A stretch of 64,000 bases of DNA, from positions 1 to 64,000 of the IMG/VR virus record IMGVR_UViG_3300045988_158059; one strand, given 5' to 3'. Position 1 is the stretch's first letter, and each line of letters opens with the position of its first letter. Positions 9,216 through 63,640 of this stretch are shown here, piece after piece. Under the pieces are notes generated by a model. The model was not told the DNA's origin, did no database searches, and saw nothing but the letters and a program-made list of their open reading frames with translations. Origin of the DNA: a virus. The position numbers and the translations under genes are program-made.

Positions 9216-9223
9216 TGTTTAAT

Positions 9224-9778
9224 TTAATTTCTATTGATTACATTAATCTGGCAGCTTTCCATTACATCAAGAGCCGCTTTATGCTTTTCCGGTGTTGATC
9301 CTGCGCAGCATGATGCATCCACTGTGATTTTTGCCTCTGGATAATAAGTTTTAATCAAAAGAGCGTTCGTAATAACACAAATGTCTGTGCATACTCCAAT
9401 AATTTCAATATCTAATAAAGAAGAATCATATGCGATACCAAATGTTTCTTCCCAATCCCAGTCATCAAATCCAAAAGTAGATTTACAACATACCATAAAA
9501 CTATCGAGATTTTTATAATCAAGTTCATCAACAATTTCCCAACCTTTAGTACCATACATACAATGTTCAGGAAGTTTTCTGCCCTCTGAAGTATCTGCGT
9601 AATCTGAATGATGAGTATCCTTTGTAAGAATTACATAGTTCTTATTATTCTTATATTCATCAAATTTCTTTTTCACATTTGGTACAATAGCTTGTGCTTC
9701 CGGTGTTCCAAGAACTCCTGTCACAAAATCATTCTGCACATCAATTACAATCAGAACTTTCTTCTTCTCTTTTTCCAT
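9224..9778 (-). CDS. isochorismatase-family hydrolase (nicotinamidase PncA-like)
   Basis: VLIVIDVQNDF and IIGVCTDICV (catalytic Cys) are the isochorismatase/PncA signatures. Start placed at MEKEKKK (ATG 9776-9778), preceded by a GGGAG ribosome-binding site. Confidence 0.7.
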   Translation of the reverse strand: MEKEKKKVLIVIDVQNDFVTGVLGTPEAQAIVPNVKKKFDEYKNNKNYVILTKDTHHSDYADTSEGRKLPEHCMYGTKGWEIVDELDYKNLDSFMVCCKSTFGFDDWDWEETFGIAYDSSLLDIEIIGVCTDICVITNALLIKTYYPEAKITVDASCCAGSTPEKHKAALDVMESCQINVINRN

Positions 9779-10100
9779 TTTTATTCTCCCATTCTTTAAT
9801 TTGCTGTGCTCCATCTTCAACTTGCTGCTTATCATGTCTTGAATAATTATCTGCTGGACCATAAGCACCTTTATGTCGATATGAAGCATGTCCTTTACGA
9901 GTATTAGTTTTTACTGCAGTACCACCTCGACCAAGCAAACCATTATGACCTTTTGCTAATATACCAGATTTAAATTCAGGTTCATCAATCCATTCTCCAA
10001 GATATCTTCCGGAATATTTTTGGCCCTTAATTAATCTGCGTCTCTTTTTAATACTTTTTAACCTTTGTTCTCTCAAATATCCTCTTTTACGTTCCGGCAT
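9741..10100 (-). CDS. hypothetical basic protein
   Basis: Arg/Lys-rich 119 aa. GGAGG ribosome-binding site 7 nt upstream of the ATG. Confidence 0.4.
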   Translation of the reverse strand: MPERKRGYLREQRLKSIKKRRRLIKGQKYSGRYLGEWIDEPEFKSGILAKGHNGLLGRGGTAVKTNTRKGHASYRHKGAYGPADNYSRHDKQQVEDGAQQIKEWENKNGKREEESSDCN

Positions 10101-10102
10101 TA

Positions 10103-10402
10103 CTATTCCTCCAGTCTATACAAAATAATTGGTCCACCTTCAATATAGAACGTCGCATTGTAATCTATAAATTCTCTAGCCTCATCTTCTGTCATATCCT
10201 CATGGTTAACTAAAGATTCAATCATTTTTTCGTAATCATATATTGCTCTATCATCAGAAGAAATACCAAGAAATGCATCTTCATAAGATGGATTTGTAAA
10301 AAATATCGTCCCCTCGTATCCGGCCTCTAATAACAACCGTTCTGTTTTTGATGCTTGATCTTCATATATATTATCTGATGTAAGTTCTGACATATCTACC
10401 AT
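10103..10402 (-). CDS. hypothetical acidic protein
   Basis: 99 aa ORF translationally coupled to its neighbours. Confidence 0.35.
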   Translation of the reverse strand: MVDMSELTSDNIYEDQASKTERLLLEAGYEGTIFFTNPSYEDAFLGISSDDRAIYDYEKMIESLVNHEDMTEDEAREFIDYNATFYIEGGPIILYRLEE

Positions 10403-11145
10403 TATGCGATCCTCACAATCTGTTCATATATAACTATATCTTTTATTGTTATTGCTTTATTGTCGTGGTAATGCCCACACAACCAACGCTTATAATCAAC
10501 ATTGCGCCTTATTTCTTCCAGATAATTTGTTAACTTATCCGGCTTATATAGTCCATGTGATAATAATGCTGCTGTAGAAGAAGCTGTACAATGTGTTAAG
10601 ATAAAATCTACCTTATTATTATGTTCTGCCAGATTCTTTATACCCTCATCCATCTCTTCTTGATTTGGCATTTCTCGTTCCCACCATGAAATATGATTGA
10701 TTCGGTACATTTTATCTGGATCATCTCTCCATTCCTTTACTCTTGGATCGTCAATCTCTAATACTCCATCTGAAATATCATGACTGGCAGCCCCTCCAAA
10801 GGTAAAGAATTTTAATCCGTCTATATCAAATACCTGTCCTCTCATAAGATGAATTATCGATGGTTTAATAAAATGCACCTTACCACCATGCCATTCTTCT
10901 ACCGGATAAGAATCTAATATATCGTAATTCTCATGATTTCCGTCAATAAAGAGTGTTGTGAAATGCTTCTCTTCAAGCCAATTCAGATACCACCTTTGCT
11001 GCGGTGAATCTCTCCATATCCCAAAATCTCCAAGAATTATCACATAATCGTCCTTCGACATCTCACGCTGTTCGGGGAAAGAATCCATATTAACTCTATG
11101 GATCCAATCCCCATGCGTATCTCCGGTTACCCAGATTATTGGCAT
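10402..11145 (-). CDS. calcineurin-like metallophosphoesterase
   Basis: VTGDTHGD, ILGDFG and IDGNHEN are metallophosphatase motifs I-III. The track start is TTG; the ATG at MPIIW is preferred here. Confidence 0.75.
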   Translation of the reverse strand: MPIIWVTGDTHGDWIHRVNMDSFPEQREMSKDDYVIILGDFGIWRDSPQQRWYLNWLEEKHFTTLFIDGNHENYDILDSYPVEEWHGGKVHFIKPSIIHLMRGQVFDIDGLKFFTFGGAASHDISDGVLEIDDPRVKEWRDDPDKMYRINHISWWEREMPNQEEMDEGIKNLAEHNNKVDFILTHCTASSTAALLSHGLYKPDKLTNYLEEIRRNVDYKRWLCGHYHDNKAITIKDIVIYEQIVRIA

Positions 11146-11294
11146 AACCCCCAAATGAAGTAGTTAACGCTTAACATAAGTAATGATATTGCAGAAGGCC
11201 AATAACCATCCGGAACAACATTATTCATAACAACGCTCATGCATATCACACTGATAATGAAAAACACAATATTTTTTAATATCGTTTTAATCAT
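11136..11294 (-). CDS. small hydrophobic protein (micro-ORF, 52 aa)
   Basis: Hand-translated MIKTILKNIVFFIISVICMS... Its ATG overlaps the upstream stop (TAATG), with GGAG upstream. Absent from the track because it is under 60 aa. Confidence 0.35.
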   Translation of the reverse strand: MIKTILKNIVFFIISVICMSVVMNNVVPDGYWPSAISLLMLSVNYFIWGLCQ

Positions 11295-11770
11295 TATTTC
11301 GTTAACTCCTTATACTGATCAAGCAAGGCCGCCAGTTCTGGATTCTCAGTCGCATACATTTCATATTTCTTTGTTACATCCATCTGTTTGATAACGGCAT
11401 CCATATCTTTTTTAAGCTTCTCAGCTTTCTTTCTATTTTCAACACGCTGGTCATATGCAGATGTATCAACTCTACAGATAATTTCAGCAGTAATATTTTT
11501 ATTATATTTTACTTCTGCTTCCGGTACTGTTAAAATTTCTTTAATTGTCAGAACATCTTTGTTACAACCACTTACTAAAACCTGGTCTCCGGCTTTATAT
11601 GTATTGCCATCGTCAAAGACTGCATAATAATAGTCTTTCTTACAACAACAAGTTACTTCTTCAATTACTGCTACTGCATAATATCCTGTTAATTTTGCCA
11701 TTTGTCCATTCTCCTCTTCTAATTTAATTATATTTAACAAATAACCTTCATACGTTTTAAACTTAACCAT
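11294..11770 (-). CDS. hypothetical protein
   Basis: 158 aa ORF. No motif. Confidence 0.4.
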   Translation of the reverse strand: MVKFKTYEGYLLNIIKLEEENGQMAKLTGYYAVAVIEEVTCCCKKDYYYAVFDDGNTYKAGDQVLVSGCNKDVLTIKEILTVPEAEVKYNKNITAEIICRVDTSAYDQRVENRKKAEKLKKDMDAVIKQMDVTKKYEMYATENPELAALLDQYKELTK

Positions 11771-11776
11771 ATCTGC

Positions 11777-11950: not shown

Positions 11951-11951
11951 A

Positions 11952-13095: not shown

Positions 13096-13125
13096 TACGG
13101 TATGCGTGTTCTTACGCATACCGTA
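13096..13125. other. perfect 12-bp hairpin (tacggtatgcgt / acgcataccgta, 6-nt loop)
   Basis: Seen directly in the sequence, between the coiled-coil gene stop and the micro-ORF. Possible RNA processing or stability element, or attenuator. Confidence 0.35.
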
Positions 13126-13136
13126 TAATTAAATTA

Positions 13137-14117
13137 TCATTTATTATTCTGCTGAGTCTGACCGTTCAGAATTTTAACTCCACCGGTAGATTCTACAGTC
13201 TTAGCAGCAAGTTCTCTCATCTGAGCATATGCATCGTCAAGTTTCTGCTGTAATTCAACTTTTTCTGCTCTCGCATTAGCCAGATCCTCTGCAAGTCTTT
13301 CATTTTTATCTTCCAGAAGCTGTTTCTGATATTCAGCATCTTTCTTAAGTGCTCTGACCTCAAACGCATTTGATTTATCAGCATCGGCTTTACCTTTTTT
13401 AATACCTTCCTCTGTTGCTGCTGCAATCAATGTCGGAATCTCTTCTACTTTTGCTTCTAATTCCTTTACATGATCAGATTTTGCATTCAGTTCTGTTTCT
13501 TTCTCAAGAGCCGCTGTTTCTCTAAGTTCCAAAATCTTTTCTCTAGCAGCTTTCTCATCTTCCCACTTATCATTTTCAGCTTTACGACTACGTTTCAGAT
13601 TATAGGTATATTCATCTTCCTCACGGCTACGAGTTAATTTAATTTCATTTTCTCTTGCTTTAGCTTCTGCATTGATAGAATCAATAATTTCCTGTTTCTG
13701 CTGCTTCAGTGCCTCAATTTCAGCTTTCAGTGTATCTTTTTTCTCACCCAATTCAGCTTCAATCTCTGCTTCTTTCGCTGCCTGAGTCTCTTTTAACTCT
13801 TCATTTTTCTCTTTATAAGCATTGATCATAGCTGCCATAGCATTTGCTTTTGTCTCAATGCCATATAATTCATCTAACTCAAGCTGTTTAATTTCAATAG
13901 CTTCTGTAAGATCATTGTATTTCTTGATAATCTCTGGATTAAAGATATCCTCTTTTGCTGTTGCATCTGCAGATTCGATAACTTCTACCTTTTTAGCCTT
14001 CGCTGCTTCTTTTGCAGGATCATCAATCATTCGGTCTCTTGTATCAAGTTTCTCCACTGCTGCCTTATACGCTTCCATAATTTCTGCCTTTGTTGATTTC
14101 ATTGTAATTTCTGCCAT
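13137..14117 (-). CDS. hypothetical K/E/A-rich coiled-coil protein
   Basis: 326 aa, almost entirely heptad-like charged repeats. Confidence 0.45.
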   Translation of the reverse strand: MAEITMKSTKAEIMEAYKAAVEKLDTRDRMIDDPAKEAAKAKKVEVIESADATAKEDIFNPEIIKKYNDLTEAIEIKQLELDELYGIETKANAMAAMINAYKEKNEELKETQAAKEAEIEAELGEKKDTLKAEIEALKQQKQEIIDSINAEAKARENEIKLTRSREEDEYTYNLKRSRKAENDKWEDEKAAREKILELRETAALEKETELNAKSDHVKELEAKVEEIPTLIAAATEEGIKKGKADADKSNAFEVRALKKDAEYQKQLLEDKNERLAEDLANARAEKVELQQKLDDAYAQMRELAAKTVESTGGVKILNGQTQQNNK

Positions 14118-14142: not shown

Positions 14143-14155
14143 ATTTTGTTTAATT
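14143..14155 (-). promoter_or_regulatory. conserved intergenic motif, GTTTAATTAAATT class (representative instance)
   Basis: One of about 25 near-identical AT-rich palindromic motifs, each 15-25 nt upstream of a minus-strand start codon. See the findings for the full list. Confidence 0.5.
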
Positions 14156-14185
14156 AAATTTTTATATCAAAGCTTTAATAGCTTA

Positions 14186-18431: not shown

Positions 18432-18522
18432 GTCTACATATCTCCTTGAGTTAATTTAATTTGTTTTCCCTGTGTCATTATAATAGCACCGTAGGCTTCT
18501 GATGTCAATACTAAAAGTTAAT

Positions 18523-19296
18523 TTAATTTGTTTTATTTTTTAAAAGTTCATTTACGAATGTTTTCATAGGTTCTCTCATATTAACATTTTCATGTAGCCA
18601 CTCCAGATACTCAGGATCTGTCTTTGCAACATCTGTCAGTAATTCATCCTTATGCTTTTTGTATGGACATTTGTATGTCTCAATATCCGGTAAATCATAT
18701 GCATCAGTATCATCTTTAAAAGAAATATCAATGTCTTTTCTGGAAGCCAAATAATCTGCTACATGTACAATTTTCCCTAACTGTGATTTTGGCTTTGGTA
18801 ATACAATACTTTCTCTATCACTTGTGTTCCATTGTCCCATATGAGACGAAACAGCATCAGCAATAATCTCAAGTTCATCATCTTCGAGATATAATCCTTT
18901 ATAATTACGAATATATTCTGCTGCCAACAACGGATGATTAAATACAGTAAACACCTTTTTTCCATCCTTTGCCTTTTCTTCATATATTTCTGCAGTACCA
19001 GACTTTTGAATATCATGTGCCAAACAAGCAACACGTCCAAGATCTATCCATCTCTCATCAAACTGATTCTGGTACTGTTCTAATCCGATGATATAATTGT
19101 AAATCCTTAATACTGCTTTTGTATGACGCATTAAACCGCCATCACCCAGCGCGTATGCCGGGTGATATTTACCTGTAGAACTTGCCGCAACTTTGAAAAA
19201 ATAGTCTGGGGCATCGTCCAAAACAACTTTTGCAAAATCACGAATATCATCTGAAGTAATTGTTTTTAATTCGTTTTTAAATAATTCTGACTTCAT
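18523..19296 (-). CDS. HD-domain phosphohydrolase
   Basis: KYHPAYALGDGGLMRHT ... RVACLAHDIQK is the H...HD metal-binding motif. Confidence 0.65.
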   Translation of the reverse strand: MKSELFKNELKTITSDDIRDFAKVVLDDAPDYFFKVAASSTGKYHPAYALGDGGLMRHTKAVLRIYNYIIGLEQYQNQFDERWIDLGRVACLAHDIQKSGTAEIYEEKAKDGKKVFTVFNHPLLAAEYIRNYKGLYLEDDELEIIADAVSSHMGQWNTSDRESIVLPKPKSQLGKIVHVADYLASRKDIDISFKDDTDAYDLPDIETYKCPYKKHKDELLTDVAKTDPEYLEWLHENVNMREPMKTFVNELLKNKTN

Positions 19297-21596
19297 TTGC
19301 TCTCCTTTTTGTTTAATTTAATTTTTAACTTCTTTAATATATCTAATAAAAAAGTGTTCCTCTTAAAATTCTCTTTCTTTTTAATGGATCTGTTTACAGT
19401 GTCTTTATCTCCAATATGAAAGCATTTTTCTTTTGTACGTGTTAATGCCACATATAATAAATTAGAATTCATCATATAAGCATGACAAGATGGTGTAAGT
19501 GTAATCGTCACCTTAGCACTTCCTCCTTGGCTTTTATGAATAGAAATTGCATATCCAAGCAGCAACATTGACATTTCTGATTTTTCATATTTTACTCTGA
19601 CACCATCAAAATCAATAATAGCGCCTGTCTTATGTTCATTTGTATATGGAACAATTTCGTCATAAATATCAATAATCTTTCCTAACATACCATTAGGAAT
19701 AAATGTTTTATCTATAGAAGGTTCATCATTTTGAGAAGCATTTTCTATTTCCATATCCCCCATATCTACTTCTGCTTCATAATTATTTTTGATCTGAATT
19801 ACTATATCACCCACGTAATATGTCGTATCTCCAGATTTGATACATTTTTCTGATCCATAGTTTGGATTAGCAATTTTCTGGACTGCATTATTAATTGCAA
19901 TAGTACCACAATCACCTTTATTGAAAGCAGATAGAACAAGAATATCTTCAGGAACATATTGAGAAAGAAGCTTCTGATATAATCCAATTGCACATTTTAC
20001 TGCTTGTTCATTATTAGCATTAATAAAAGTATAATCCTTGCCAAATTTTACCATACCATTACTCAAATCATATAAATATGGTTTCATATTTCTAACATCA
20101 GTAGCAACTTTCATTAACCCACCCTCAGCATACCTGAAAATTTGATTCAAAGTCACTGTAGGTATAACAAATGAATTGATCACATCATAAAGTAGATTTC
20201 CCGGTCCAACAGATGGAAGCTGCGCTGAATCACCTACAACAATAAGTTTCGTTCTGCTAAAATCAATTGCGTCACACAAATGTAAGAACAGAAATATATC
20301 TGTCATAGAGAATTCATCTACAAGAACAACATCAAATGGGAGTTTGCATTCACTATCATATCCCCACCTATTCTTCGGCATATAACCTAAGCCACGATGA
20401 ATTGTAGCCGCTGGCTTACCGGTATAATCACTCAACACTTTTGCAGCGCGTCCTGTTGGAGCCATTAAAGTATATGAAATATTGTTATCCTCCAACATTT
20501 TAATGATCATTGCGGAAGTGGCACTTTTACCTGATCCTGCAAAACCATTCAGTATCATAATATTATTGTTACATATACATTCCAATGCACTGGTTTGTTC
20601 GTCAGTTAAATGATACTCTCCCGACGTCTGATAACTCTTCCAGTCAAAATCCCATATTTTAGGTTTTAAGTTTGCTACAAATAATATAGCAGCTATAGCA
20701 GTTTCAGTATCATGTGTGGCTTTTAAAGATACTTCAAAAGTATCTTTGTTATAATAAATATCTGGATCCTTTAAACATTCAACATAATGTGATGAACAAG
20801 CAGGAACAAGTCTTACAACCTGTTTTCTGAGATCGCGGAGATCCATTTTAGTATTTCCCTCTTTTTGATTCTCTTCCAAATAATATTCCATACATGCTGC
20901 ACATCTTTGCGCAGATGATTTTAATTCAAACGGAAAATTGATCTTGCCAAGTCTCTGCAATTCTAAAAGAATACTATCTGCCTTAATAAAACCTACACCA
21001 GATATTTTTGTCAAAGATTTATATGGTTGTTTTCTCAATTCTTGTTTCATTTTAGGGATTGATTTAAATTCATCATATAATTTCTTTAACATTGACATTG
21101 TGAGAATTCCACCAAATTCAATTACTAAATCATAGATACAATAATTCTCAACTATTTTTGTTTTAATAGTTTCAAATGTTTTTTCTCCGATACCTTTTAA
21201 TTTATCAAGATCAACAGTATCAGCTTCTCCTCTTAACACAATATCAATAATATCTGGATAATGCTGCCAAAGTACTCCTGCCTGGTTCTCAGTTAAAATT
21301 TCTCTTAAGAACATATAAACTTCTTCTTCAGTTTTAGGCTTATCCATTCTCACATTTACAATATCATACCCAAAACCATATTTATCGAGCTGTTCCACAG
21401 CCGTAATTTCATACGACTGTGAAACTACTAAATTATGTACATTTCCATAAATAGTAACATTATCATATTTATTATGCTTAATATTAGGGAACTCTTTTTT
21501 ATCTACGTCTGTAGCATAAATTTTATAATCCTCTGAATTATACATGCACTTTACGATTTTACAATTAAATTTCACTTCTTTTTTACTCATATTCAC
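19293..21596 (-). CDS. RecD/Dda-like SF1 DNA helicase
   Basis: Walker A NGFAGSGKSAT, Walker B VVLVDEFSM, and SF1 motifs including GDSAQLPSVG. Confidence 0.8.
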   Translation of the reverse strand: MNMSKKEVKFNCKIVKCMYNSEDYKIYATDVDKKEFPNIKHNKYDNVTIYGNVHNLVVSQSYEITAVEQLDKYGFGYDIVNVRMDKPKTEEEVYMFLREILTENQAGVLWQHYPDIIDIVLRGEADTVDLDKLKGIGEKTFETIKTKIVENYCIYDLVIEFGGILTMSMLKKLYDEFKSIPKMKQELRKQPYKSLTKISGVGFIKADSILLELQRLGKINFPFELKSSAQRCAACMEYYLEENQKEGNTKMDLRDLRKQVVRLVPACSSHYVECLKDPDIYYNKDTFEVSLKATHDTETAIAAILFVANLKPKIWDFDWKSYQTSGEYHLTDEQTSALECICNNNIMILNGFAGSGKSATSAMIIKMLEDNNISYTLMAPTGRAAKVLSDYTGKPAATIHRGLGYMPKNRWGYDSECKLPFDVVLVDEFSMTDIFLFLHLCDAIDFSRTKLIVVGDSAQLPSVGPGNLLYDVINSFVIPTVTLNQIFRYAEGGLMKVATDVRNMKPYLYDLSNGMVKFGKDYTFINANNEQAVKCAIGLYQKLLSQYVPEDILVLSAFNKGDCGTIAINNAVQKIANPNYGSEKCIKSGDTTYYVGDIVIQIKNNYEAEVDMGDMEIENASQNDEPSIDKTFIPNGMLGKIIDIYDEIVPYTNEHKTGAIIDFDGVRVKYEKSEMSMLLLGYAISIHKSQGGSAKVTITLTPSCHAYMMNSNLLYVALTRTKEKCFHIGDKDTVNRSIKKKENFKRNTFLLDILKKLKIKLNKKESK

Positions 21597-30557: not shown

Positions 30558-30602
30558 AGTATTTGTTTCCTTTCTGTACTTTGTATAATTTAATTATTAT
30601 AG

Positions 30603-37314: not shown

Positions 37315-37322
37315 TACATAAA

Positions 37323-39311: not shown

Positions 39312-39313
39312 TA

Positions 39314-40543: not shown

Positions 40544-40831
40544 TTAACCAATCCATTCATCTAATGACACATTAATAACATTATCATCAGCAGTTTTCGC
40601 TTCATCTTTCTTTACAGTGTTTTTCTTGTCATCATCCTCATTATTTGAAGTAGATTCTGTTTTAGCGACTGTTTCTGATGTAGTAGTACCGGATACTGAT
40701 TTATCTTTCTTCGTCTGAATCATTCCAGTCTGTGTTCCTGCAAAGATACCTCCTCCAAGCAGTGCTACAATCAGAACCATAATCAGAATTTTTGCTGCTT
40801 TAGTTAATCTAAATCTTTTTGCTTTCTTCAT
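40544..40831 (-). CDS. signal-anchor plus Ser/Thr/Asp-rich linker; likely 5' exon or N-terminal fragment of the split substrate-binding-protein gene
   Basis: Basic N-terminus, TM helix, low-complexity linker, ending VINVSLDEWIG. That ending resembles the missing first beta-strand (RLGYFPNIT in SsuA-type proteins). Confidence 0.45.
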   Translation of the reverse strand: MKKAKRFRLTKAAKILIMVLIVALLGGGIFAGTQTGMIQTKKDKSVSGTTTSETVAKTESTSNNEDDDKKNTVKKDEAKTADDNVINVSLDEWIG

Positions 40832-44583: not shown

Positions 44584-44596
44584 GTTTAATTAAATT
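44584..44596 (-). promoter_or_regulatory. conserved intergenic motif, GTTTAATTAAATT class (representative instance)
   Basis: Minus strand reads AATTTAATTAAACAAagaagggagaaagttATG: motif, then ribosome-binding site, then ATG of the Tad2-like gene. Confidence 0.5.
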
Positions 44597-46666: not shown

Positions 46667-46689
46667 ATTTTTATCTCCTTATTGTTTAA

Positions 46690-47322
46690 TTAAATTTTTA
46701 TTTTCACTGATTTTTCTTTTCTTATTCGAGACTGATTCTTTTTGAACAATTCATCAAATACTCTTGGAGTATACTTTTTATCTGGCACAATTTTTTCTAT
46801 TCTTTTAGTAGCACTTCCAGATAAAACGCTCGCACATGATTGAATTTTCATTGTATTTATAATTTGCATCTTATTCTTAGCTTCTCTTCGTCTATCACAA
46901 ATCTCTTGCAGCTTTTTGCATAATTTATATCCTTCTGCCGCAGAAAACTTATGAAATTCAATATAATGCAAAATGTCTGAAATTTGTAAATCAGTATATG
47001 AAATAATAGAATTAAGTTCTTTTGAATAATCAGTAATTTCATTCATCTTACTTGAAAATTCATTTATACTACCGATAATTTCACCAACTATATCATCTGT
47101 CGTAATTGCTTCAACTCCATTATAATCGGTTTCACAAATTTCATATGGTCCAAATTTTTTTAATACGTCTGGAATATTATTTGCTTGAATTGCCTTAATC
47201 TTTTTCTTTTCAATTTCAGGAACCAAGAGTGCATCAGCAAGATCAGATACTAATTTGATTCTTCCTGTTGGATCTCTTGCGATGTACTCTCCATTTTTCC
47301 CTTTTAAATAGTAACATATCAT
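46690..47322 (-). CDS. hypothetical protein
   Basis: 210 aa ORF. Confidence 0.4.
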   Translation of the reverse strand: MICYYLKGKNGEYIARDPTGRIKLVSDLADALLVPEIEKKKIKAIQANNIPDVLKKFGPYEICETDYNGVEAITTDDIVGEIIGSINEFSSKMNEITDYSKELNSIISYTDLQISDILHYIEFHKFSAAEGYKLCKKLQEICDRRREAKNKMQIINTMKIQSCASVLSGSATKRIEKIVPDKKYTPRVFDELFKKNQSRIRKEKSVKIKI

Positions 47323-47408
47323 TGTTCATGCCTTTCTGATTGAGTTAATCTAATTCGTTTTGATAGATCAACTATATCACTGTTATTTGCATTTGTCAAT
47401 AGTAAAAG

Positions 47409-49409
47409 TTAATTTAATTTGTTTTTGTATTCTTCTTCACTGATAATAGGAATGTTCAACTCAGAAGCTTTCTTATTTTTACTAGATCCACTGTTTTTAT
47501 CATTGGTAATTAGATAATCAGTTGCCTTTGTAACTCCGGACACAACTTTCCCTCCTTTTGATTCTATATCCGCCACAAGTTCATCCCGGTTAGCAAAAAT
47601 ATGTAACTTCCCAGTGATACAGAATTTCTTTCCGGACAATGAATCGCTTTCAGAAGATATTTTATCATTATTAAGTTTCGAAAATATGAACTGTTCTGCC
47701 AAAGCAATAACGTAATCATAATTTTCCTTAAAATATCTATGGATAGAAATATTTCGCTCCGTCCCTAATCCTTCAATACAGGTAAAATTAAAATCAGAAG
47801 CAGCATCTTTAATAAATGTTTCAAATGGATAGAGCATTCCTAATTCCCTGGTTCTTATTTCTTCATATCTAGCAATATCCTTTGCAGCTCTACCACCAAT
47901 TAACGGAATATTTAATCCTACAATAAATTTTTCTATGGTAGTATTCCTGCTAAACTCAATAGAATCTAAAATATTCGCAATTTTCTTTGCTCCCATTCTA
48001 GGTAATCTGGACAATTCTGTAGAATGATCCTTCAAATAATACAGATCAATTGGTGATGTCACAAGCCCAGTATCAATCAATAGCTGCAATGTAGCCTCAG
48101 ATAATCCATTAATATCATGGGCCTTTTTTCCTACAAAAGCATTTAATTCACCCAGAAGCTTGCCTTTGCATCCAGCATTCATGCACATCAATACTTCAGA
48201 ATCGTTCTCTTTTACGACAGACACTGGTTCTCCACAGATTGGACATATTTTAGGAATTATAAACTTTTCACCGGTATTATAACCTCTTGTTATGTTTTGA
48301 GAAATCTGCGGAATGATCTGGTTTGCCTTATACACAGATACGGTATCATCTTTATGAAGATAAAATCCTTTGAATATACTCACATTGTGTAGGCTCGCTC
48401 TACTTACAGATGTTCCGTCAATATCAACCGGTTCAAAGACTGCTGTAGGCGTTAATTGTCCAGATTTACCCATAGTCCATTCAATATCAGTCAAAACTGT
48501 CTCAAATTCATCATCATAGAACTTGTATGCCAGAGAATGACGTGGATACTTATCTGTGACTCCAAGTGATAATCCATAAGCGATATCATTATATGCAGCA
48601 ACAAGCCCATCAATTGGATAAGATAAGTATGCTGCCTTTTCCTTTAACAGATTAATAAGCTCTTCAAGATTCTGATTTTCTTTATATACACGAATATAGG
48701 GTACAATATCAAATCCAAGTTCTCTTGCTTTTTCAAATCTTGCTGACATTAAAGGTAGCTCGTCCATACCGGCAGGTACCTTCCATACTATAAAACGAAC
48801 ATGACGTTTGGCTGCTACCTTACTATCTAGCTGTCTGACTGATCCTGAAGCAAGATTTCGCGGGTTCTTATATCTATCTTCTTCATGTTTAATTAAATTA
48901 TTAATTTTCTCAAAATCTGTATATGTAATAATAGCTTCTCCTTCGATTTCAACGTGGCCTTTCTGATTAATATGCATAGGAATATTTTCGAACGCCTTTG
49001 CATTGTGAGTAATAATTTCTCCTGTAACGCCGTTTCCGCGAGTTTCAGCCTGGATCAGCTCGCAATCTTCATACGTCAAAAGAATTGTCAATCCATCCAT
49101 CTTACACATTAGCAAAGCATCTTTATCACCAATAAATTTTCGAAGTATATTCACATCTTTAGTTTTATCAAGAGACATCATTAAATGTGAATGCTCAGTT
49201 TTCTCTAATTTACTTTTTACTTCATATCCGACGCTATGGACTGGAGAATTACTTAAAATAACTCCTGTTTCTTTTTCCATTTTTTCCAACTGATCACACA
49301 GATCATCATACTGATGATCCGTAACAATACTCTCTGCATTATTATAATAAGCATCTCGGTACTGATTAAGTTTTTCAACCAATGCTTTCATTTCTTCAAT
49401 CTTGTTCAT
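47409..49409 (-). CDS. ligA: NAD+-dependent DNA ligase
   Basis: KMDGLTI is the KxDG adenylation motif. Also a CPICGEP...C..AGCKG Zn finger, an HhH region and a C-terminal BRCT-like KKFCITGKL. Confidence 0.85.
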   Translation of the reverse strand: MNKIEEMKALVEKLNQYRDAYYNNAESIVTDHQYDDLCDQLEKMEKETGVILSNSPVHSVGYEVKSKLEKTEHSHLMMSLDKTKDVNILRKFIGDKDALLMCKMDGLTILLTYEDCELIQAETRGNGVTGEIITHNAKAFENIPMHINQKGHVEIEGEAIITYTDFEKINNLIKHEEDRYKNPRNLASGSVRQLDSKVAAKRHVRFIVWKVPAGMDELPLMSARFEKARELGFDIVPYIRVYKENQNLEELINLLKEKAAYLSYPIDGLVAAYNDIAYGLSLGVTDKYPRHSLAYKFYDDEFETVLTDIEWTMGKSGQLTPTAVFEPVDIDGTSVSRASLHNVSIFKGFYLHKDDTVSVYKANQIIPQISQNITRGYNTGEKFIIPKICPICGEPVSVVKENDSEVLMCMNAGCKGKLLGELNAFVGKKAHDINGLSEATLQLLIDTGLVTSPIDLYYLKDHSTELSRLPRMGAKKIANILDSIEFSRNTTIEKFIVGLNIPLIGGRAAKDIARYEEIRTRELGMLYPFETFIKDAASDFNFTCIEGLGTERNISIHRYFKENYDYVIALAEQFIFSKLNNDKISSESDSLSGKKFCITGKLHIFANRDELVADIESKGGKVVSGVTKATDYLITNDKNSGSSKNKKASELNIPIISEEEYKNKLN

Positions 49410-49433
49410 TTTTTCCTCCTGTATTATGTATAA

Positions 49434-49769
49434 TTAAATCGTCAAAATATCAAAATGTACTGACCAATGATCACACATCATATCAATTGTTGCATCCGCG
49501 ATATCGTTAACGCACTCGTCATCACATTTGACTGAATCAAACTGAGAAATATCAATATAATGCTCTGCTGTTCCCTCTTCAAAAGTGATAATATTATCAT
49601 TTACTGTAATATTAACTGGATTCAACTGCATATGAGATATTATTGCAGATTCTTTTTCTCCTACAGAGAAATGTACCGCAACAGTTTTATTGTCATATGC
49701 TGCTTTTTCAAACATAATATCGATTTTCTGAGCTACTTTACTTGCATTCTTTACAAATTCTCTAACCAT
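49434..49769 (-). CDS. hypothetical protein
   Basis: 111 aa ORF. Confidence 0.4.
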   Translation of the reverse strand: MVREFVKNASKVAQKIDIMFEKAAYDNKTVAVHFSVGEKESAIISHMQLNPVNITVNDNIITFEEGTAEHYIDISQFDSVKCDDECVNDIADATIDMMCDHWSVHFDILTI

Positions 49770-49842
49770 TTTTTTGTTCCTCGTAATAAATTTGATTTTA
49801 ATGAAAGTTAATTTAACTTGTTACTTTATTTAAACATGGCGA

Positions 49843-50754
49843 CTATATTAAATAGTCACCATATTTTTTAAGAAAATACGCAGGTCTTTTAATTTTTATT
49901 CCATACTGGTGTTCAATCATAGACCGAGTTTCAATATCATATAAAATCTTGTTTTTATTTAAATTATATTTTCGGATTAATTCATTTGCCATATTGATTT
50001 GGCCGGAGATATTGATTTTTTCAGCAGTCATATATGATACATCTATGGACTTCAACGCTGCTGCTAATGAATTATACATTTGTCTCCCAAGACAATGCGG
50101 ATCATCTTTTACAATATGAGATCTTTTTATAATGGTTCCATCGTCCATAAGTTTGGATTTAGTTCCATATGGATATGTTAATTCCATTGTCATATTGCTC
50201 TTTTGTGCAGTTAAAATTAATGCTTCACTTACATTTACAACTCTTCCGGAATACAATTTCATTGTATGATTTTCTACGTCAATATCATCAAGTTTTGCTC
50301 TAATCGTGTCTTCAAAATCTTTAGACTTGCCATATTCAAAAATGCTCAGAATCATGAATCGATCTCTAGGATTCTTTAATGCTTCGATCCATGTTAAAAT
50401 CGTATCTCTTGATACAATCTGATGATTTAACAATGTCTTATTTAATAGTGCTGCCAGCATATCAGGTGTGATAGTTGCATAGATATTTTGTCCATTTAAC
50501 ACTAAATTCTCATTAACACACCAGTCCGTATATTGTGTAAGAGTATTATTTACTACAATAATGGACTCTAATGTTGTAAATTTGAACAACTTATACATTT
50601 CTGTAATCTCATTTAAATTAAAGTCACATAAATCCTTTTGATACATATGTTCAAACGGCGCAACTCTCTTAAATCTAGGTACAAGAGGAGTAACGCTTGC
50701 AACAGTTTTTAACTTAAATTCGTAAAACCTTTGTTTTCTATCTTCGTTATACAT
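49843..50754 (-). CDS. tyrosine-recombinase-like protein (degenerate?)
   Basis: PRDRFMILSIFEYGKSKDFEDTIRAKLDDID resembles recombinase box I (RDRALLELLY.TGLR.SEL..L...DID). HCLGRQMYNSLAAALKS resembles box II (HxLRHTFAT). The terminal catalytic Tyr context is unclear. Confidence 0.35.
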   Translation of the reverse strand: MYNEDRKQRFYEFKLKTVASVTPLVPRFKRVAPFEHMYQKDLCDFNLNEITEMYKLFKFTTLESIIVVNNTLTQYTDWCVNENLVLNGQNIYATITPDMLAALLNKTLLNHQIVSRDTILTWIEALKNPRDRFMILSIFEYGKSKDFEDTIRAKLDDIDVENHTMKLYSGRVVNVSEALILTAQKSNMTMELTYPYGTKSKLMDDGTIIKRSHIVKDDPHCLGRQMYNSLAAALKSIDVSYMTAEKINISGQINMANELIRKYNLNKNKILYDIETRSMIEHQYGIKIKRPAYFLKKYGDYLI

Positions 50755-52035
50755 TTATATTCTCTCCTCTAAAAAAGGAATTAATCTTTTCCTTATCTTA
50801 TTAAAGTTTCTCGAAAAATCATATATTATTTTTTCCTCACGTTCCGCATCATAAATAAGAAAACGCTTATAGTTCTCTATCATTGATATTTTATTTTTTC
50901 CATCATAATAATGAAATAAAATCGTAAGAATTATAATTTCTTTCTTTGAATATTCTTTTTCAAGATACTTATCATCTTCTTCTGTAAGCATATTCAGATC
51001 TTCGATAAATTCCTTTGATACTCTAATGATTTCTTTTCGTTGCTCAGGAGAATCACTTTGCCTTTTACTGAAATATAATCTCTTAATACATTCTGCCAGA
51101 GTTGTTGAATCAATAAGCCCGCCTATTTTTATTTCCCCTTGCAAATTACACATACTGCTTTCATTAATACGCTGGACCACTTTATTCTGAGCTGCATATG
51201 AGTTATATGTGTCGCTTAACTGTTTGCTCATTTTAGTTTTCTGGTCATACTGATATATCATACGGCGAGATTTATCAATGTCAAAGTTTGTAATTCTCAG
51301 CTCCATTGGATAGTTAAAATTTGGATTTTTACTTCTGGCCTGGAACATTGATACATATCTATGATATCCATCGTTTATATCAAACGCCTCTAAAGAATGA
51401 ATAATAAGCTGACGTGATTGCTCATCATAATGAAAATCTGCGTATACATCATCTTTCGGGATATTCAAAGTGATTGTATCCGGAACATAAATATGTTCAA
51501 GCATATCTGCCGTAATTTCTTTTACTGCACTCTTATTCAATGTAATACGATATAGCTCATTATTATCTCGTGTTACTTTAGTCATAGCACGTTGTGTGAC
51601 AGGATTATAGTTAATTAATCCTGATTCTTGCAGAGCGCAAAATGTATCTACATTTAAAGATCCTATCCATTGATCATCGCTTACCTGAATCATATTGAAC
51701 ACCAACGGGAATTCAATTTTATTTGGTTCTTCGTATTGCATCCCACTATATTTACTTATTTCTCTGTCTGTAAAAAAGTCAGATAACTTTTTGCGATAAT
51801 CTTTCTTAGTGGCATTTAATATACTATCTGCAATTACAAAAAGTGTATAATCATTTGCTTCTTCAATACTCTTTCTACTAGATAAAAAATCTGAAAAAAT
51901 GCCTTTGGGATAATTATATTTCTCATATGCATAATTGTAAATTTCTAGCTCGTCACTCTTATTAATTAAGATATTAAAAAACTTTTTGGATAAATAATCT
52001 TCTAAAATACTTCTATCGACATTCATTTTTCTCAC
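50755..52035 (-). CDS. hypothetical protein with DndB/DGQHR-like motifs
   Basis: NPVTQRA and DGYHRY resemble the QR and DGQHR motifs of DndB/DpdB-like proteins. Weak. Confidence 0.3.
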   Translation of the reverse strand: MRKMNVDRSILEDYLSKKFFNILINKSDELEIYNYAYEKYNYPKGIFSDFLSSRKSIEEANDYTLFVIADSILNATKKDYRKKLSDFFTDREISKYSGMQYEEPNKIEFPLVFNMIQVSDDQWIGSLNVDTFCALQESGLINYNPVTQRAMTKVTRDNNELYRITLNKSAVKEITADMLEHIYVPDTITLNIPKDDVYADFHYDEQSRQLIIHSLEAFDINDGYHRYVSMFQARSKNPNFNYPMELRITNFDIDKSRRMIYQYDQKTKMSKQLSDTYNSYAAQNKVVQRINESSMCNLQGEIKIGGLIDSTTLAECIKRLYFSKRQSDSPEQRKEIIRVSKEFIEDLNMLTEEDDKYLEKEYSKKEIIILTILFHYYDGKNKISMIENYKRFLIYDAEREEKIIYDFSRNFNKIRKRLIPFLEERI

Positions 52036-52073
52036 CTCTTTCCTCAGATTATATCACGCAAAGTTAATTTTGT

Positions 52074-53102
52074 CTATATTTTTGATGATAAATTTTTCGA
52101 CATGAACTCCGTTGCTTCCTTTCTTGAGTTATTTTCTTCAACTGTATAAATACTGGTTGTCTGTATATCTGCATGCCCTACGGCATTTTTCGTAGCAACG
52201 ATATCTTTTGTTTCCTTATAATATAATGAAGCAAAAGCAGCTCTTAACTTATGCGGAGACACATGTTTACCAATTCCTTTCTCGGCATATTTGACTACCA
52301 TACAATAGATTGTTTGTGGATCCATACGTTTTCCATTTTTTGATATAAAAAGAGCATCCTCTTTAATCCCCATATTATATAGTATTTTATCTCGATCAAG
52401 GATCCAATCTCTTAATACACGTATGGAATCATCATTTAATTGATATACCTGTTCTTTATCTCGCTTGTCGATAATAGTCAAATTGTGAGTCTCAAAATTT
52501 AAATCACTTAAGTTAATTTCGCTTAATGCAGTTTTTCTCATGCCGGTAACCATAAATAAATATAATATAGCATAATCTCTTGAATGCCATTCTTTTGGCA
52601 TGTAAGAATATTTTACGGCGCCCAATATTCCATTTAAATCATCCATTGATAAAAACACTCTTTTAATCGAGTCTTTTCTAATAGGCCGATTTACATTGTC
52701 CATCGGATTCCTTTCAATATCTCCTCTCCGATACAAAAAATCAAAAAACCTATTTAATGTGCAACATACCAATTTAGTATATGCCACAGACGACTTTTTA
52801 ATTTCACCATTACCATCTTTTACGTATTTAATATGCTCCAGATACCTTGCGATATCATCTGCGTCAATTTCGCTTATATCTTCTACATCTATATAATCTA
52901 AGAAATGATGAAGTTTTCTAACGTAATTTAAACAAGTATTCGGGCTGCGAACAGCCTGAATACTCATATAAAAATCACTCACGCATTGTGGCATATCATT
53001 AAGAATTTTCTTAACATTCTTATTTAATTTTAATTCATGCTCCAACCTTCCATTCATAACTTCATTCTCCTCTCTAACATAATTCCAGCTTGTTGATACC
53101 AT
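52074..53102 (-). CDS. tyrosine recombinase / integrase (XerD family)
   Basis: C-terminal HKLRAAFASLYY....VGHADIQTTSIYTV matches box II with the catalytic Tyr. N-terminal SAM-like core-binding domain. Confidence 0.85.
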   Translation of the reverse strand: MVSTSWNYVREENEVMNGRLEHELKLNKNVKKILNDMPQCVSDFYMSIQAVRSPNTCLNYVRKLHHFLDYIDVEDISEIDADDIARYLEHIKYVKDGNGEIKKSSVAYTKLVCCTLNRFFDFLYRRGDIERNPMDNVNRPIRKDSIKRVFLSMDDLNGILGAVKYSYMPKEWHSRDYAILYLFMVTGMRKTALSEINLSDLNFETHNLTIIDKRDKEQVYQLNDDSIRVLRDWILDRDKILYNMGIKEDALFISKNGKRMDPQTIYCMVVKYAEKGIGKHVSPHKLRAAFASLYYKETKDIVATKNAVGHADIQTTSIYTVEENNSRKEATEFMSKNLSSKI

Positions 53103-54390: not shown

Positions 54391-54963
54391 TTATGCTGCA
54401 AATCCAAATTCTGATAAATTAATTGTTTCTTTTCGAGGTAAATAATCTGATCCACATGAATCACATATTTTTTTGACTTCCTGATCACTTAATATCTTGA
54501 TTACTTTCATTTCTCCGGCAATGATCCATTCTCCAGTCATTACAGGAGATGTTTTATACCGGTAAAATCCATGTTTTGGAATATAATCTAAGTCAGCTTT
54601 TATATAATTAAATTTTCCAGATTCAGAAATCCCATTTGATTCTGCTTCTTCACAGTAATCATGATCAATACAATATTCAACCATAGCCCATACAGTATCC
54701 GGCCGCATATAAGTAATCTTGCCATTTACCTTTTGCCCTATATGTGAGACATACGGAGCTGCATCATTAATATGAAAGCCAGGACGATATCTCAATGGCC
54801 CAAGTTTGCTTTTTACCTTTCCATTTTCTAATCTTTCTCCTGGTTCTGCACTAATCCATTCTCCAATTGGAATATTCGTATTTGCATTTACATACAGAGG
54901 AAATAGTTTCCCCGGATATTTTTTAGATACCCTAAAAAGCTTATAACCAATTACTGTTTTCAT
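54391..54963 (-). CDS. hypothetical protein
   Basis: 190 aa ORF. Confidence 0.4.
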   Translation of the reverse strand: MKTVIGYKLFRVSKKYPGKLFPLYVNANTNIPIGEWISAEPGERLENGKVKSKLGPLRYRPGFHINDAAPYVSHIGQKVNGKITYMRPDTVWAMVEYCIDHDYCEEAESNGISESGKFNYIKADLDYIPKHGFYRYKTSPVMTGEWIIAGEMKVIKILSDQEVKKICDSCGSDYLPRKETINLSEFGFAA

Positions 54964-55019
54964 TATACCACTCCTCTTTTACGTTTTCAATATTTTATTA
55001 ATCATGTATAATTAAATTT

Positions 55020-61728: not shown

Positions 61729-61749
61729 AATCTACATTCTCCTTTTAAT

Positions 61750-62049
61750 TTAATTTTCAAATTCTATTTGCTGTAATTCTTCCATCGTAGAAGCGGATCC
61801 GACAATAGTACAATAAATTACATTAGATACTTTTGTATTTAATTCTTTTGTAAGAGACTTAAAAAGTTCACTTAACTCTTCTGCTCCGGCTCTGGTACCA
61901 ATATGATTTTCAATATCCAGTTGAACTTCATCTTCTCTTCCGTCCAATGTCAAGAATCCTACATTAATAACTGAACAAAAAGATAATGTATCTACTTCCG
62001 ACACAAGCTTCCCCTGTTTAATTAACTGTTTTATTGTCAATGTGATCAC
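61750..62049 (-). CDS. hypothetical protein
   Basis: 99 aa ORF. Confidence 0.35.
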   Translation of the reverse strand: MITLTIKQLIKQGKLVSEVDTLSFCSVINVGFLTLDGREDEVQLDIENHIGTRAGAEELSELFKSLTKELNTKVSNVIYCTIVGSASTMEELQQIEFEN

Positions 62050-62056
62050 CTCGTTA

Positions 62057-62449
62057 TTATAATTCTAACCCAATCATCTCTTTTGCAATTTCTTTAACCG
62101 CTTTTCTCGCCGTCCAATCAGTATACTCTGCAGCACAGGCCACGCAGTGGTCATACATGAACTCCACCAAGTCACCCACATCCTTGATTTTAGCCTTGAT
62201 TTCGGCAATCTTTTTTTCTTCTTCTTTTTTTAATTCTTTTTGAAGTTCTTCACGCGAAGCATACAAATCTTTCAGCAGGCAGCCGCTGTTTCCACCATCG
62301 TCCCACTCAATATCTGCATATGGATATTTTTTCGGGTATCGTACAGAAACTTCTGTTTCGCCAAGTGCCGTAATTTTTGCACTGTGGATACACTGTCCCC
62401 AAGGTTCCAAGAACCAGACTTTCTGACCAATTTTTGGATTATTAATCAT
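62057..62449 (-). CDS. hypothetical protein
   Basis: 130 aa ORF. Confidence 0.4.
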   Translation of the reverse strand: MINNPKIGQKVWFLEPWGQCIHSAKITALGETEVSVRYPKKYPYADIEWDDGGNSGCLLKDLYASREELQKELKKEEEKKIAEIKAKIKDVGDLVEFMYDHCVACAAEYTDWTARKAVKEIAKEMIGLEL

Positions 62450-62462
62450 TATTTATCACCTC

Positions 62463-62954
62463 CTAACATTCAATCCACTTCTTCAGTATAATTAAATCTT
62501 TATCTTTTCCCTGATAAAACCAATGGCTGCCCATCTGCTCTTCATCCCAAGTCAAATATCCTGCCAGAGAAGCACAAAGAATGAATGCTTCAAGCGCAGC
62601 TCTTGCATAATTTCGATCTTCGCCAGTAACCAACTGTCCGTCTGTCATTTCATCTGGCTTTAATGCACGAAAATATTCTCTTTGTCTGTACTTCTCACTT
62701 CTTTCACTTGGAATTGAATATTTATATTTGTGATACAGATTTTCAATAATCTCAAAACATATTTCATTGCATTCCTTTCTTGACGTATCAAAGTTAATTC
62801 CGTCAATAACAATTAAATCGTGACGGATATCATACATAGAAGATTCTATATATTTTTTACCTTCACAAATTAATGTTTTATTCTTTAAATCCGCTTTCCA
62901 TCTTTTGGTTTCGCTAATTTTAAGATCAGATAAAAAATCTCCGTAAATACTCAT
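62463..62954 (-). CDS. hypothetical protein
   Basis: 163 aa ORF. Confidence 0.4.
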   Translation of the reverse strand: MSIYGDFLSDLKISETKRWKADLKNKTLICEGKKYIESSMYDIRHDLIVIDGINFDTSRKECNEICFEIIENLYHKYKYSIPSERSEKYRQREYFRALKPDEMTDGQLVTGEDRNYARAALEAFILCASLAGYLTWDEEQMGSHWFYQGKDKDLIILKKWIEC

Positions 62955-62980
62955 TTTATCTACTTCCTTTCATTTTATTG

Positions 62981-63620
62981 TATATTAACTCTGTATTTCT
63001 GAGACATTCCTTTAATAGTTTCATATATGAAGGTTATCCGGAGGATATCTAGCTCCGTTAGGGGCTTGATTTCCTCCGGATAACCTTCTTATTAAATTTT
63101 AAATACCTTGTTAATATTCACTGCCTTGTGGTTTTATATCAATTCAACATTTCTGAGGTATCACTATAATCATTTCATATCTCCAGAGCAAGCCGTGAGG
63201 CAATTTATTGCCTCAGGTGGTTGTTTCTGAAATTAAATTAAATGTCTTATTGATACTCGTTACCTTACGATTTTTTTTATATTAACTCAACATTTTTAAG
63301 ACATTTCTATAATTGTTTCATATAATGCAGGTTACTGGAGATGTAATCTTCAGGAAGTGCTGGGGATACCCAGAGGTTCCTGAAGAAGACATCTATCTTA
63401 GCCTGCATTATTAAATCTTAAATATCTTATTTGCATTCCGTTATACTCCGGACTGAATATACTCAATTAATCTGGCACATTTCTTTAACAGAGTCATATT
63501 GAGCTGCGATTCTCCTGGTGGAGGATCTTAAAGCCGGTTCGGTAGACCGGATTTCAGATCCGTAACCAGGAATAATGGCAGCACCATTAAATCGTATTAA
63601 CCTTGTATATTCCGAGTGTG
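62981..63620. ncRNA. structured non-coding region with four repeated hairpin modules (candidate small-RNA cluster or cis-regulatory/origin-like region)
   Basis: Module A is a perfect 17-bp stem, 63029-63045/63072-63088. Module B has a 9-bp stem, 63196-63215, within an outer ctgagg/cctcag pair. Module C is a nested stem, 63327-63407. Module D is a multi-branched stem, 63514-63570. Each module is preceded by an aacatttct-like box. No ORF of 60 aa or more. Confidence 0.4.
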
Positions 63621-63640
63621 CTCTCGTTTAATTAAATTAC

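Follow-up and report, generated by a model that had tools for sequence, protein, structure and literature searches.

A gene-co-oriented AT-rich motif along the early arm of an SPbeta-like gut prophage: probable operator boxes of an MrpR/SroF-family repressor

The DNA analyzed here, referred to as the window, is a stretch of 64,000 nucleotides (nt) comprising positions 1 to 64,000 of the IMG/VR virus record IMGVR_UViG_3300045988_158059. All window genes lie on the minus strand, with a G+C content of 29-36%, and they encode a DnaE-type polymerase, a RecD-like helicase, a primase, a DnaB-like helicase, NrdDG, thymidylate synthase and an NAD-dependent DNA ligase, as well as NAMPT, other nicotinamide adenine dinucleotide (NAD) genes and four tRNAs; an Rfam search of the window returned the four tRNAs and nothing else. 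A short AT-rich motif recurs before many of these genes. We find that the motif is probably the repeated operator box of a master repressor of the MrpR/SroF family and, judging from sequence comparison, the counterpart of the SPBRE and Phi3TRE boxes of the Bacillus phages SPbeta and phi3T. The window is part of an SPbeta-like prophage of about 175 kb, whose host is probably a gut Blautia (Lachnospiraceae). Exact matches to its proteins occur on human-gut contigs of 200-250 kb, the prophage ends about 7 kb past window position 1 with Xis and integrase genes that adjoin host hydrogenase genes, and the adjoining host gene is 89-90% identical to Blautia genes. IMG/VR holds dozens of relatives of 145-177 kb, and exact protein copies are indexed in about 1,100 to 4,950 blocks of an assembly collection. 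Among annotated phages, large siphoviruses of Clostridioides and Bacillus come nearest (DnaE identity 35-45%); megablast of the DnaE gene against GenBank phages gave no close relative, and a first scan of genome contigs with a small phage protein gave no match.

The motif stands far above expectation. Compared with shuffled sequence, the pattern TTWAATTAWAC occurs 17 times in the 64-kb window, always on the minus (coding) strand, against 0.89 expected on both strands; TTWAATTAACT occurs eight times (seven on the minus strand) against 0.39, and TTTAATTAAA seven times against 0.96. The most over-represented 10-mers of the window, TTAATTATAC, TTAATTAAAC and AATTAACTTT, reach 22-27 times their third-order Markov expectation. 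With a 19-nt weight matrix at a threshold of at least 16 bits, 23-24 sites are found on the coding strand and none on the opposite strand, where 0.15 are expected per strand. Because these counts are far above those of the shuffles, a chance origin is excluded. Among close relatives the 11-nt core carries 0.5% mismatches as against 3-5% in the flanks, so that the core is kept 6-10 times better. The core is under selection, and the motif is real, asymmetric and strand-specific. Its information content is limited to about 18 nt, the conserved stretch being 17-19 nt, and a search around the aligned copies for a -35-like element or any other extension found none. Three sub-classes occur in the window, AAATTTAATTAWAC, AAATTAAATTAAAC and AAACAAATTAAATTAACT; class A is defined as aAAAATTTAATTA[A/T]AC, class C as AAATTAAATTAAAC and class B as AAAACAAATTAAATTAACT. 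The copies are given below with their matrix scores and are referred to hereafter by their higher coordinate; X, Y and Z denote diverged lineages of relatives, RBS a ribosome-binding site, and -35 and -10 the elements of nearby sigmaA-type promoters.

6556-6566, minus strand: class C-like match, 16.0 bits; overlaps a start codon (ATGATTAAATTAAAC), possibly by chance
9217-9227, minus strand: class C box, 21.5 bits; before the RBS at the head of the NAD block
13123-13133, minus strand: class A box, 18.4 bits; followed by a hairpin and the RBS
13632-13642, minus strand: class B-like box, 16.0 bits; intragenic
14148-14158, minus strand: class A box, 23.5 bits; at the orthologous place lineage Z carries a motif of its own
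18449-18459, minus strand: class B box, 19.8 bits; between -10 and RBS
18516-18526, minus strand: class B box, 20.0 bits; 7 nt 5' of the -35
19311-19321, minus strand: class C box, 21.7 bits; before an RBS
30583-30593, minus strand: box TTAAATTATAC, 20.6 bits; before the Sak4-like gene that heads the replication block, where lineage Z has its own motif
33117-33127, minus strand: class A box, 20.3 bits
35892-35902, minus strand: class A box, 23.5 bits; 154 nt upstream of tRNA-Leu
37040-37050, minus strand: class A box, 18.6 bits; before the RBS of an ATPase gene
37202-37212, minus strand: class A box, 21.0 bits; 12 nt upstream of tRNA-Gln (37103-37189), with the same layout in lineages X and Y
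37322-37332, minus strand: class B box, 20.0 bits; 7 nt 5' of the -35
37869-37879, minus strand: class C variant box, 16.6 bits; before an RBS
41603-41613, minus strand: box TTTAATTAACT, 19.6 bits; before an RBS
44584-44594, minus strand: class A box, 19.6 bits; before an RBS
46684-46694, minus strand: class A box, 23.5 bits; before an RBS
47343-47353, minus strand: class B variant TTAGATTAACT, 13.6 bits; between -10 and RBS
47407-47417, minus strand: class B box, 20.0 bits; 7 nt 5' of the -35
48887-48897, minus strand: class A box, 20.6 bits; intragenic, in the ligase gene
49428-49438, minus strand: class A box, 16.2 bits; before the RBS of the NAD-dependent DNA ligase gene
49806-49816, minus strand: class B-like box, 15.5 bits; after a hairpin (-19.4 kcal/mol) that trails the repressor gene and before the p111 gene (both described below)
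55006-55016, minus strand: class A box, 22.8 bits; 15 nt 5' of the -35 of the promoter at 54990
61743-61753, minus strand: class C variant box, 13.9 bits; abuts an RBS
62486-62496, minus strand: class A box, 19.7 bits
63626-63636, minus strand: class A box, 17.6 bits; followed by about 680 nt without an open reading frame (ORF)

The original prediction had described a conserved palindromic motif at about 25 gene boundaries, absent from three long operons and less frequent inside coding sequence. At 23 of the 25 positions that it listed there is a clear coding-strand copy. The exceptions are 52059, where we find only the half-match AAAATTAACTTT within the spacer of a sigmaA-type promoter, and 63226, a weak copy (12.8 bits) in the opposite orientation, on the plus strand; conversely, the sites at 37212, 48897, 13642 and 6566 had escaped it. 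The copies are indeed concentrated at gene boundaries, which account for 21 of the high-scoring sites, the three others lying deep within, or right at the start of, coding sequence, and they are missing from the three long blocks except for 6566, which overlaps a start codon, and for 57337, a weak match inside a gene. The distance of 15-25 nt to the start codon proposed there describes 13 sites (14-25 nt from the 3' end of the motif), but five others lie at 30-42 nt. What does not stand is the palindrome as a functional property: only seven sites have a palindromic core, the flanks are asymmetric, and the orientation of the motif follows the direction of the genes, including that of a leftward gene outside the window. 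At the far end of the window, positions 62955-63640 (686 nt) contain no convincing ORF; this stretch holds a hairpin at 63196-63215 and a weak plus-strand box at about 63233. Rfam finds nothing in it, and its counterpart in L001 is 338 nt longer.

The boxes occupy two kinds of places, one of them at sigmaA-type promoters, the best of which are the following.

18480-18508, minus strand: TTGACA-17-TATTAT with TG; thymidylate synthase gene, flanked by boxes 18526 and 18459
37286-37314, minus strand: TTGACA-17-TATACT with TG; box 37332 lies 7 nt upstream
47371-47399, minus strand: TTGACA-17-TATAGT with TG; flanked by boxes 47417 and 47353
52048-52076, minus strand: TAGACA-17-TGATATAAT; before the yopQ-like and mrpR-like genes, with the half-box AAAATTAACTTT (52058-52069) in the spacer
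54962-54990, minus strand: TTGAAA-17-TATAAT with TG; box 55016 lies 15 nt upstream, and lineages X and Y keep the promoter

All five best coding-strand promoters of this type (11/12 score, TG extension) have a box beside or inside them. At the three strong promoters 18508, 37314 and 47399 a class B copy stands exactly 7 nt 5' of TTGACA, two of the three have a second copy between -10 and RBS (18459, 47353), and the three cassettes are near-identical across about 32 nt. In all, nine boxes are associated with these five promoters and about 20 are not. The latter, of classes A and C, are found in short intergenic gaps, 3-10 nt before the Shine-Dalgarno sequence. Copies also precede tRNA genes, by 12-16 nt in three lineages, and the motif is therefore not tied to translation. 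Overall, sigma70-like matches in the window are not in excess over shuffles, and almost no intrinsic terminators were found on the coding strand.

Two simple identities of the motif can be set aside. Given that it has no conserved -35, that its information lies within about 18 nt and that TTWAAT lacks an A at the second position, it is not itself a host sigmaA promoter; on this point the original prediction was right, although its contrast with host sigma70 promoters overlooked that each of the five best ones has an adjacent or internal copy. The other is a start-associated sequence (SAS). The SAS of Cluster K mycobacteriophages is a 13-nt asymmetric motif right before many start codons, co-oriented with the genes and including the RBS; it is tied to translation starts, unlike the window motif, copies of which are also found before tRNA genes and 5' of -35 elements. 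Two further features of the promoter regions may be recorded. The -10 of promoter 54990 overlaps the ATG of the gene at 54391-54963, which has a good RBS, and this overlap is kept in lineages X and Y. The leader of promoter 37314 (about 65 nt, 37213-37285) contains the strong hairpin GCACAGAGGAGTGAAAGCTCCCTGTGC (-22 kcal/mol), followed by the box and tRNA-Gln; the start of this leader is conserved in lineage X.

The distribution of the boxes beyond the window was traced along a collinear 177-kb contig, counting as boxes matches of at least 14 bits. The window genes belong to a rightward early arm of about 94 kb that starts at a divergent control region, where one copy of the motif lies inside a promoter spacer. 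The arm carries about 35 boxes and none on its antisense strand; the leftward operon has one, co-oriented, before an Ant-like gene. Early in this divergent operon, about 35 kb upstream of the window, lies a gene for a single-chain two-barrel RNA polymerase (RNAP) of 954 aa (L375:11693-14557, contig IMGVR_UViG_3300045988_154099), which belongs to phrog_8308, the PHROG of SPbeta YonO (E 1e-86), and has the motifs RNPH (GIRNPH) and DFDSD. The guess that the phage has a polymerase of its own is thus borne out, by a gene outside the window; within the window, the 688-aa protein p688 (44600-46666) was considered as an RNAP and rejected, having no DxDGD motif. The YonO-like gene is followed by a gap of 3.8 kb without large ORFs and then by genes for a beta-CASP protein, ClpP, an exonuclease, terminase and portal, which is the layout of the SPbeta late operon. 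From the YonO-like gene through the portal gene (22.7 kb) there is not a single box, against about eight expected at the density of the early arm. Lineages Y and Z distribute their motifs between early and late regions in the same manner. An exact 15-mer scan of viral contigs was uninformative on the genome-wide distribution, the matches listed being mostly chance.

The divergent control region contains noncoding DNA. There, outside the window, L337:6700-7440 is a G+C-richer noncoding stretch of about 750 nt downstream of a sigmaA-type promoter with the motif in its spacer; it could be a large noncoding RNA, and it has no Rfam match. SPbeta has a noncoding stretch of 1.6 kb between yonN and yonK, in which we found no SPBRE-like sequence. 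The AT-rich TTAATTAATTATAG in this gap resembles the window motif, a resemblance that cannot be evaluated, and the published YonO start (B. subtilis coordinate 2225998) did not map reliably onto the SPbeta record.

Which protein would recognize the boxes? The best candidate is encoded in the window itself, in the following group of genes.

49434-49769, minus strand: small acidic protein p111 (111 aa, isoelectric point (pI) 4.5), encoded immediately beyond the repressor gene; only its position makes it a candidate antirepressor
49843-50754, minus strand: integrase-fold repressor of the MrpR/SroF(YopR) family, 303 aa, with Pfam, PDB and phi3T matches; candidate binder of the motif
50755-52035, minus strand: YopQ(SroE)-like DndB/DGYHR protein; Pfam DndB, blastp match to phi3T_96 (E 3e-9) with the DGYHR motif aligned
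52074-53057, minus strand: YopP(SroD)-like Xer-type tyrosine recombinase; PHROG integrase, XerD-like by PDB search

The 303-aa protein matches the N-terminal core-binding domain MrpR_N_CB (Pfam PF22822) with E 1.9e-16 and 60.9 bits against a cut-off of 27, aligns over its full length with YopR/MrpR (8bjv, 8a0a) and with 9rd5 in a phmmer search of PDB (E 8e-7 to 2e-5), and matches phi3T_97 by blastp (E 3e-11). Unlike the adjoining YopP-like protein, it has no match to the Pfam Phage_integrase domain (PF00589), which may hint indirectly at a loss of the recombinase catalytic residues, the tyrosine included. The order yopP-yopQ-yopR in the window is that of phi3T_95-96-97 and of SPbeta yopP, yopQ and yopR. 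The p111 protein is specific to its lineage; three other lineages have small acidic, diverged ORFs (93-103 aa, pI about 4.1) at the same place. It shows no sequence similarity to the antirepressor Sar of phi3T, and no LexA box (GAAC-N4-GTTC) was seen by eye upstream of its gene.

Comparison between lineages links the motif to this gene group. Diverged relatives do not have the window motif; instead, each has its own repeated motif at orthologous places, for instance as a pair flanking the thymidylate synthase promoter and as a single copy ahead of the tRNA. Lineage Z (L031) uses AATAATGTAAAATTTGAAAA, lineage X (L063, L066) ATAATGWTTTAATCAAAA and lineage Y (L027, L085) TTGAAACTATCAATAATAAATTT, so that four lineages have four unrelated motifs. 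The MrpR-like proteins share 92-100% identity where the motif is the same and 32-37% where the lineages differ in it. The corresponding values between lineages are 61-69% for the ligase, 75-77% for p688, 74-79% for DnaE, 75-78% for the YonO-like polymerase and 84-88% for the beta-CASP protein. In L058, YopP has been swapped (28% identity) while the MrpR-like protein is 92% identical; since this phage keeps the window motif despite a foreign YopP, YopP is excluded as the determinant of the motif.

On these grounds the following course of events may be proposed. The 303-aa repressor would be expressed from the sigmaA promoter 52076, with the half-box in its spacer, and one monomer would clamp one long, asymmetric, AT-rich box, by analogy with phi3T SroF. 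Such a monomeric clamp on an asymmetric box would account for the asymmetry of the motif and for its co-orientation with transcription. In the lysogen, the repressor would sit on about 35 boxes distributed along the early arm of about 94 kb, which carries the replication, nucleotide and NAD genes, and at the start of the divergent operon. Where boxes accompany the five strong sigmaA promoters, 7-15 nt 5' of the -35, between -10 and RBS or in the spacer, binding would block initiation or promoter escape. The roughly 20 boxes without a promoter would act as polar roadblocks against read-through and spurious transcripts, a role that we infer for operons with almost no terminators. The late operon would be transcribed by the YonO-like polymerase, and its freedom from boxes fits this assignment. 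The original prediction had offered two alternatives, a promoter of a phage RNAP or the operator of a dimeric phage regulator. The operator is the better supported of the two, but the regulator is likely an integrase-fold repressor whose phi3T relative is monomeric, the palindromic core being incidental; as to the promoter, an RNAP is encoded, but the motif is missing from the 22.7-kb late region and changes between lineages while the YonO-like protein remains 75-78% identical.

A number of observations weigh against a repressor box as the full explanation. For about two thirds of the boxes, no sigmaA-type promoter lies within 70 nt (promoter scores 8.27 against a background of 8.04), and every SPBRE and Phi3TRE copy inspected is associated with a promoter, unlike most window boxes; the Bacillus models do not explain these copies, hence our recourse to roadblocks. 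The conserved length of 17-19 nt is shorter than the 24-26 bp that SroF reads. The immunity module, moreover, diverges as a whole, with YopQ-like proteins only 40-45% identical between lineages and a lineage-specific small acidic protein, and therefore co-variation alone does not single out the MrpR-like protein. Finally, the phage encodes its own RNA polymerase, and the promoter sequence of YonO is not defined even in SPbeta (PMC5467207). This last circumstance favors another explanation, namely that the motif, or at least the roughly 20 copies without a sigmaA promoter, is a lytic-cycle promoter for the YonO-like RNAP or for the host polymerase aided by a phage factor. Transcripts would then begin where the motif ends on its 3' side, with leaders of 15-20 nt that include the RBS or a 12-nt leader before a tRNA, and in a mixed version the same box would serve both as promoter and as repressor site. 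The early position of the polymerase gene in the divergent operon, the fixed short distance from the motif to the RBS or the tRNA 5' end and the lack of both a -35 and a nearby sigmaA promoter at these copies all agree with it, as do copies directly before a 5' hairpin (13133) and box 49816, which follows a terminator-like hairpin, so that transcription of the next gene calls for a promoter at that point or for read-through. Yet the 22.7-kb region without boxes corresponds to the part of the genome that YonO transcribes in SPbeta, and the motif is replaced wholesale between lineages while the identity of the YonO-like protein equals the genome average. Three copies hold a fixed position 7 nt 5' of a TTGACA -35, which is operator-like or UP-like and shared with SPBRE, and SPBRE, the positional counterpart, is a proven repressor site (PMC10516654). 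Hairpins or terminators that would mark the starts of transcription units show no excess upstream of the boxes (p = 0.22). We therefore regard a promoter as unlikely.

Could the motif act in RNA instead, as a site where a phage endoribonuclease or translational regulator sets cistrons apart or controls them and frees tRNAs? It is strictly confined to the sense strand, it lies just before an RBS or a tRNA within long operons almost devoid of terminators, and the phage encodes a beta-CASP RNase. The copies 5' of a -35 or in promoter spacers nevertheless fit recognition of DNA, and SPBRE and Phi3TRE, both of which are recognized as DNA, have copies in such positions too; lineages with unrelated motifs still have beta-CASP proteins that are 84-88% identical, and no structure is associated with the motif. 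A function in RNA thus appears very improbable. Least credible of all, and hardly to be entertained, is a non-regulatory origin, with the motif as a linker that promotes recombination at module boundaries or as a by-product of duplicated RBS cassettes in AT-rich DNA. The copies do mark gene boundaries, relatives carry a mosaic of different genes around them and the class B cassettes are near-identical, but recombining lineages should share their linkers and each has its own motif at the same places; a linker would also have to be reconciled with the better conservation of the core than of its flanks, with an orientation that tracks gene direction on both arms and with counts that the shuffles exclude as chance.

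The repressor box remains our interpretation of the motif as a whole. For the promoter-less boxes in particular, we suggest only tentatively, and with considerable doubt, a new use of the repressor, either as an array of oriented clamp roadblocks silencing the 94-kb arm cistron by cistron, or with the boxes doubling as minimal promoters of the YonO-like polymerase in a middle phase. Were the latter true, it would reveal the promoter type of the YonO polymerase family.

Other parts of the prophage deserve mention. The gene at 37965-40831 appears to be split: 40544-40831 corresponds to positions 1-77 of phrog_25518 and 37965-39311 to positions 78-526. What separates the two parts, a gene for a GIY-YIG homing endonuclease (39314-40162) plus some 380 nt of noncoding sequence, is probably an intron that carries the endonuclease, but Rfam reported no group I intron. 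The NAD-dependent ligase gene (47409-49409) is about 570 nt longer in many relatives (L067-L081; 2569 against 1998 nt), and the alignment to the longer versions breaks near residue 389, as if an intron, an intein, a homing element or the like had been inserted. Positions 1-9200 and L005:10427-15000 together hold a large NAD/ADP-ribose module with NAMPT, Prs-like, adenylosuccinate synthetase, isochorismatase-type, Tpt1 (PTS_2-RNA), YAcAr, NADAR, NAD synthase and NMNAT-like genes; an ADP-ribosylglycohydrolase is encoded at 34279-35058 and an RNA ligase at 32074-32994. The module may serve to rebuild NAD against host defenses. About 5 kb upstream of the window, surrounded by small early genes, the prophage has a reverse transcriptase gene (RVT_1, 431 aa; L001:3743-5038).

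Among known systems, the promoters of phage RNAPs (T7-like, or the YonO start) resemble the window motif in being short, phage-specific sequences without a -35 before many genes, in differing among related phages and in the presence of a phage RNAP gene. They differ in that the window motif is absent from late genes, does not track the divergence of the RNAP and has some copies upstream of or within host-type promoters. In phi3T, SroF is a monomer that nearly encircles a 26-bp asymmetric, A-tract-rich box, reading 24 of the 26 bp, its sites are many and spread across the genome, and a phage-specific antirepressor, Sar, counteracts it (bioRxiv 10.1101/2025.11.27.690993). As there, repressor, box and putative partner form phage-specific sets in the present phages, and the gene of a small acidic protein lies just beyond that of the repressor; unlike there, no similarity of this protein to Sar can be detected, inspection by eye showed no LexA box upstream, and only class B copies come near a -35, which the phi3T boxes abut.

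The closest parallel is SPbeta, where MrpR is the master repressor, binds SPBRE in chromatin affinity purification sequencing (ChAP-seq) and in electrophoretic mobility shift assays (EMSA) and represses PaimR and PyosX (PMC10516654), and where YonO transcribes the late region from a single start site (PMC5467207). From NC_001884 we derived SPBRE as CAAATACAAAWAATATGTATAWA. Its copies abut the RBS downstream of a sigmaA promoter (yopV, yopM), flank a promoter as a pair (yonX), precede the -35 (aimR) or lie in the spacer (yonP), always co-oriented with the gene, and the window motif is found in the same four placements. The two phages share a homologous repressor with the MrpR_N_CB domain, the gene order yopP-yopQ-yopR, an asymmetric AT-rich box repeated at distant sites, and a large genome of the temperate siphovirus type that encodes DnaE and a YonO-like RNAP and whose late operon is free of boxes. 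Their box sequences, however, are unrelated and their repressors share only about 22% identity; in the phage of the window, the probable host is Blautia and not Bacillus, most boxes are without a recognizable sigmaA promoter, and the boxes are about 3-4 times denser (about 35 over some 94 kb, whereas SPbeta has 7 over the 50 kb examined and 10 ChAP-seq peaks); no arbitrium genes were seen in the parts of the phage examined. Repressors of the MrpR/SroF family with repeated boxes have so far been characterized only in Bacillus phages of the SPbeta family, and our literature searches turned up no account of repressor boxes of the SPbeta kind in phages of Lachnospiraceae. The same control logic is now placed in a very common human-gut prophage. 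Several immunity types with their own boxes would give access to the recognition between repressor residues and box, to the roadblock role and to the induction of gut prophages, and co-oriented, lineage-specific boxes offer a sequence signature by which early and late regions and immunity groups may be told apart in metagenomic SPbeta-like phages. The system is thus of a kind known from Bacillus phages (2023-2025), and what is new here is the host group, the box sequences, the several immunity types and the denser array.

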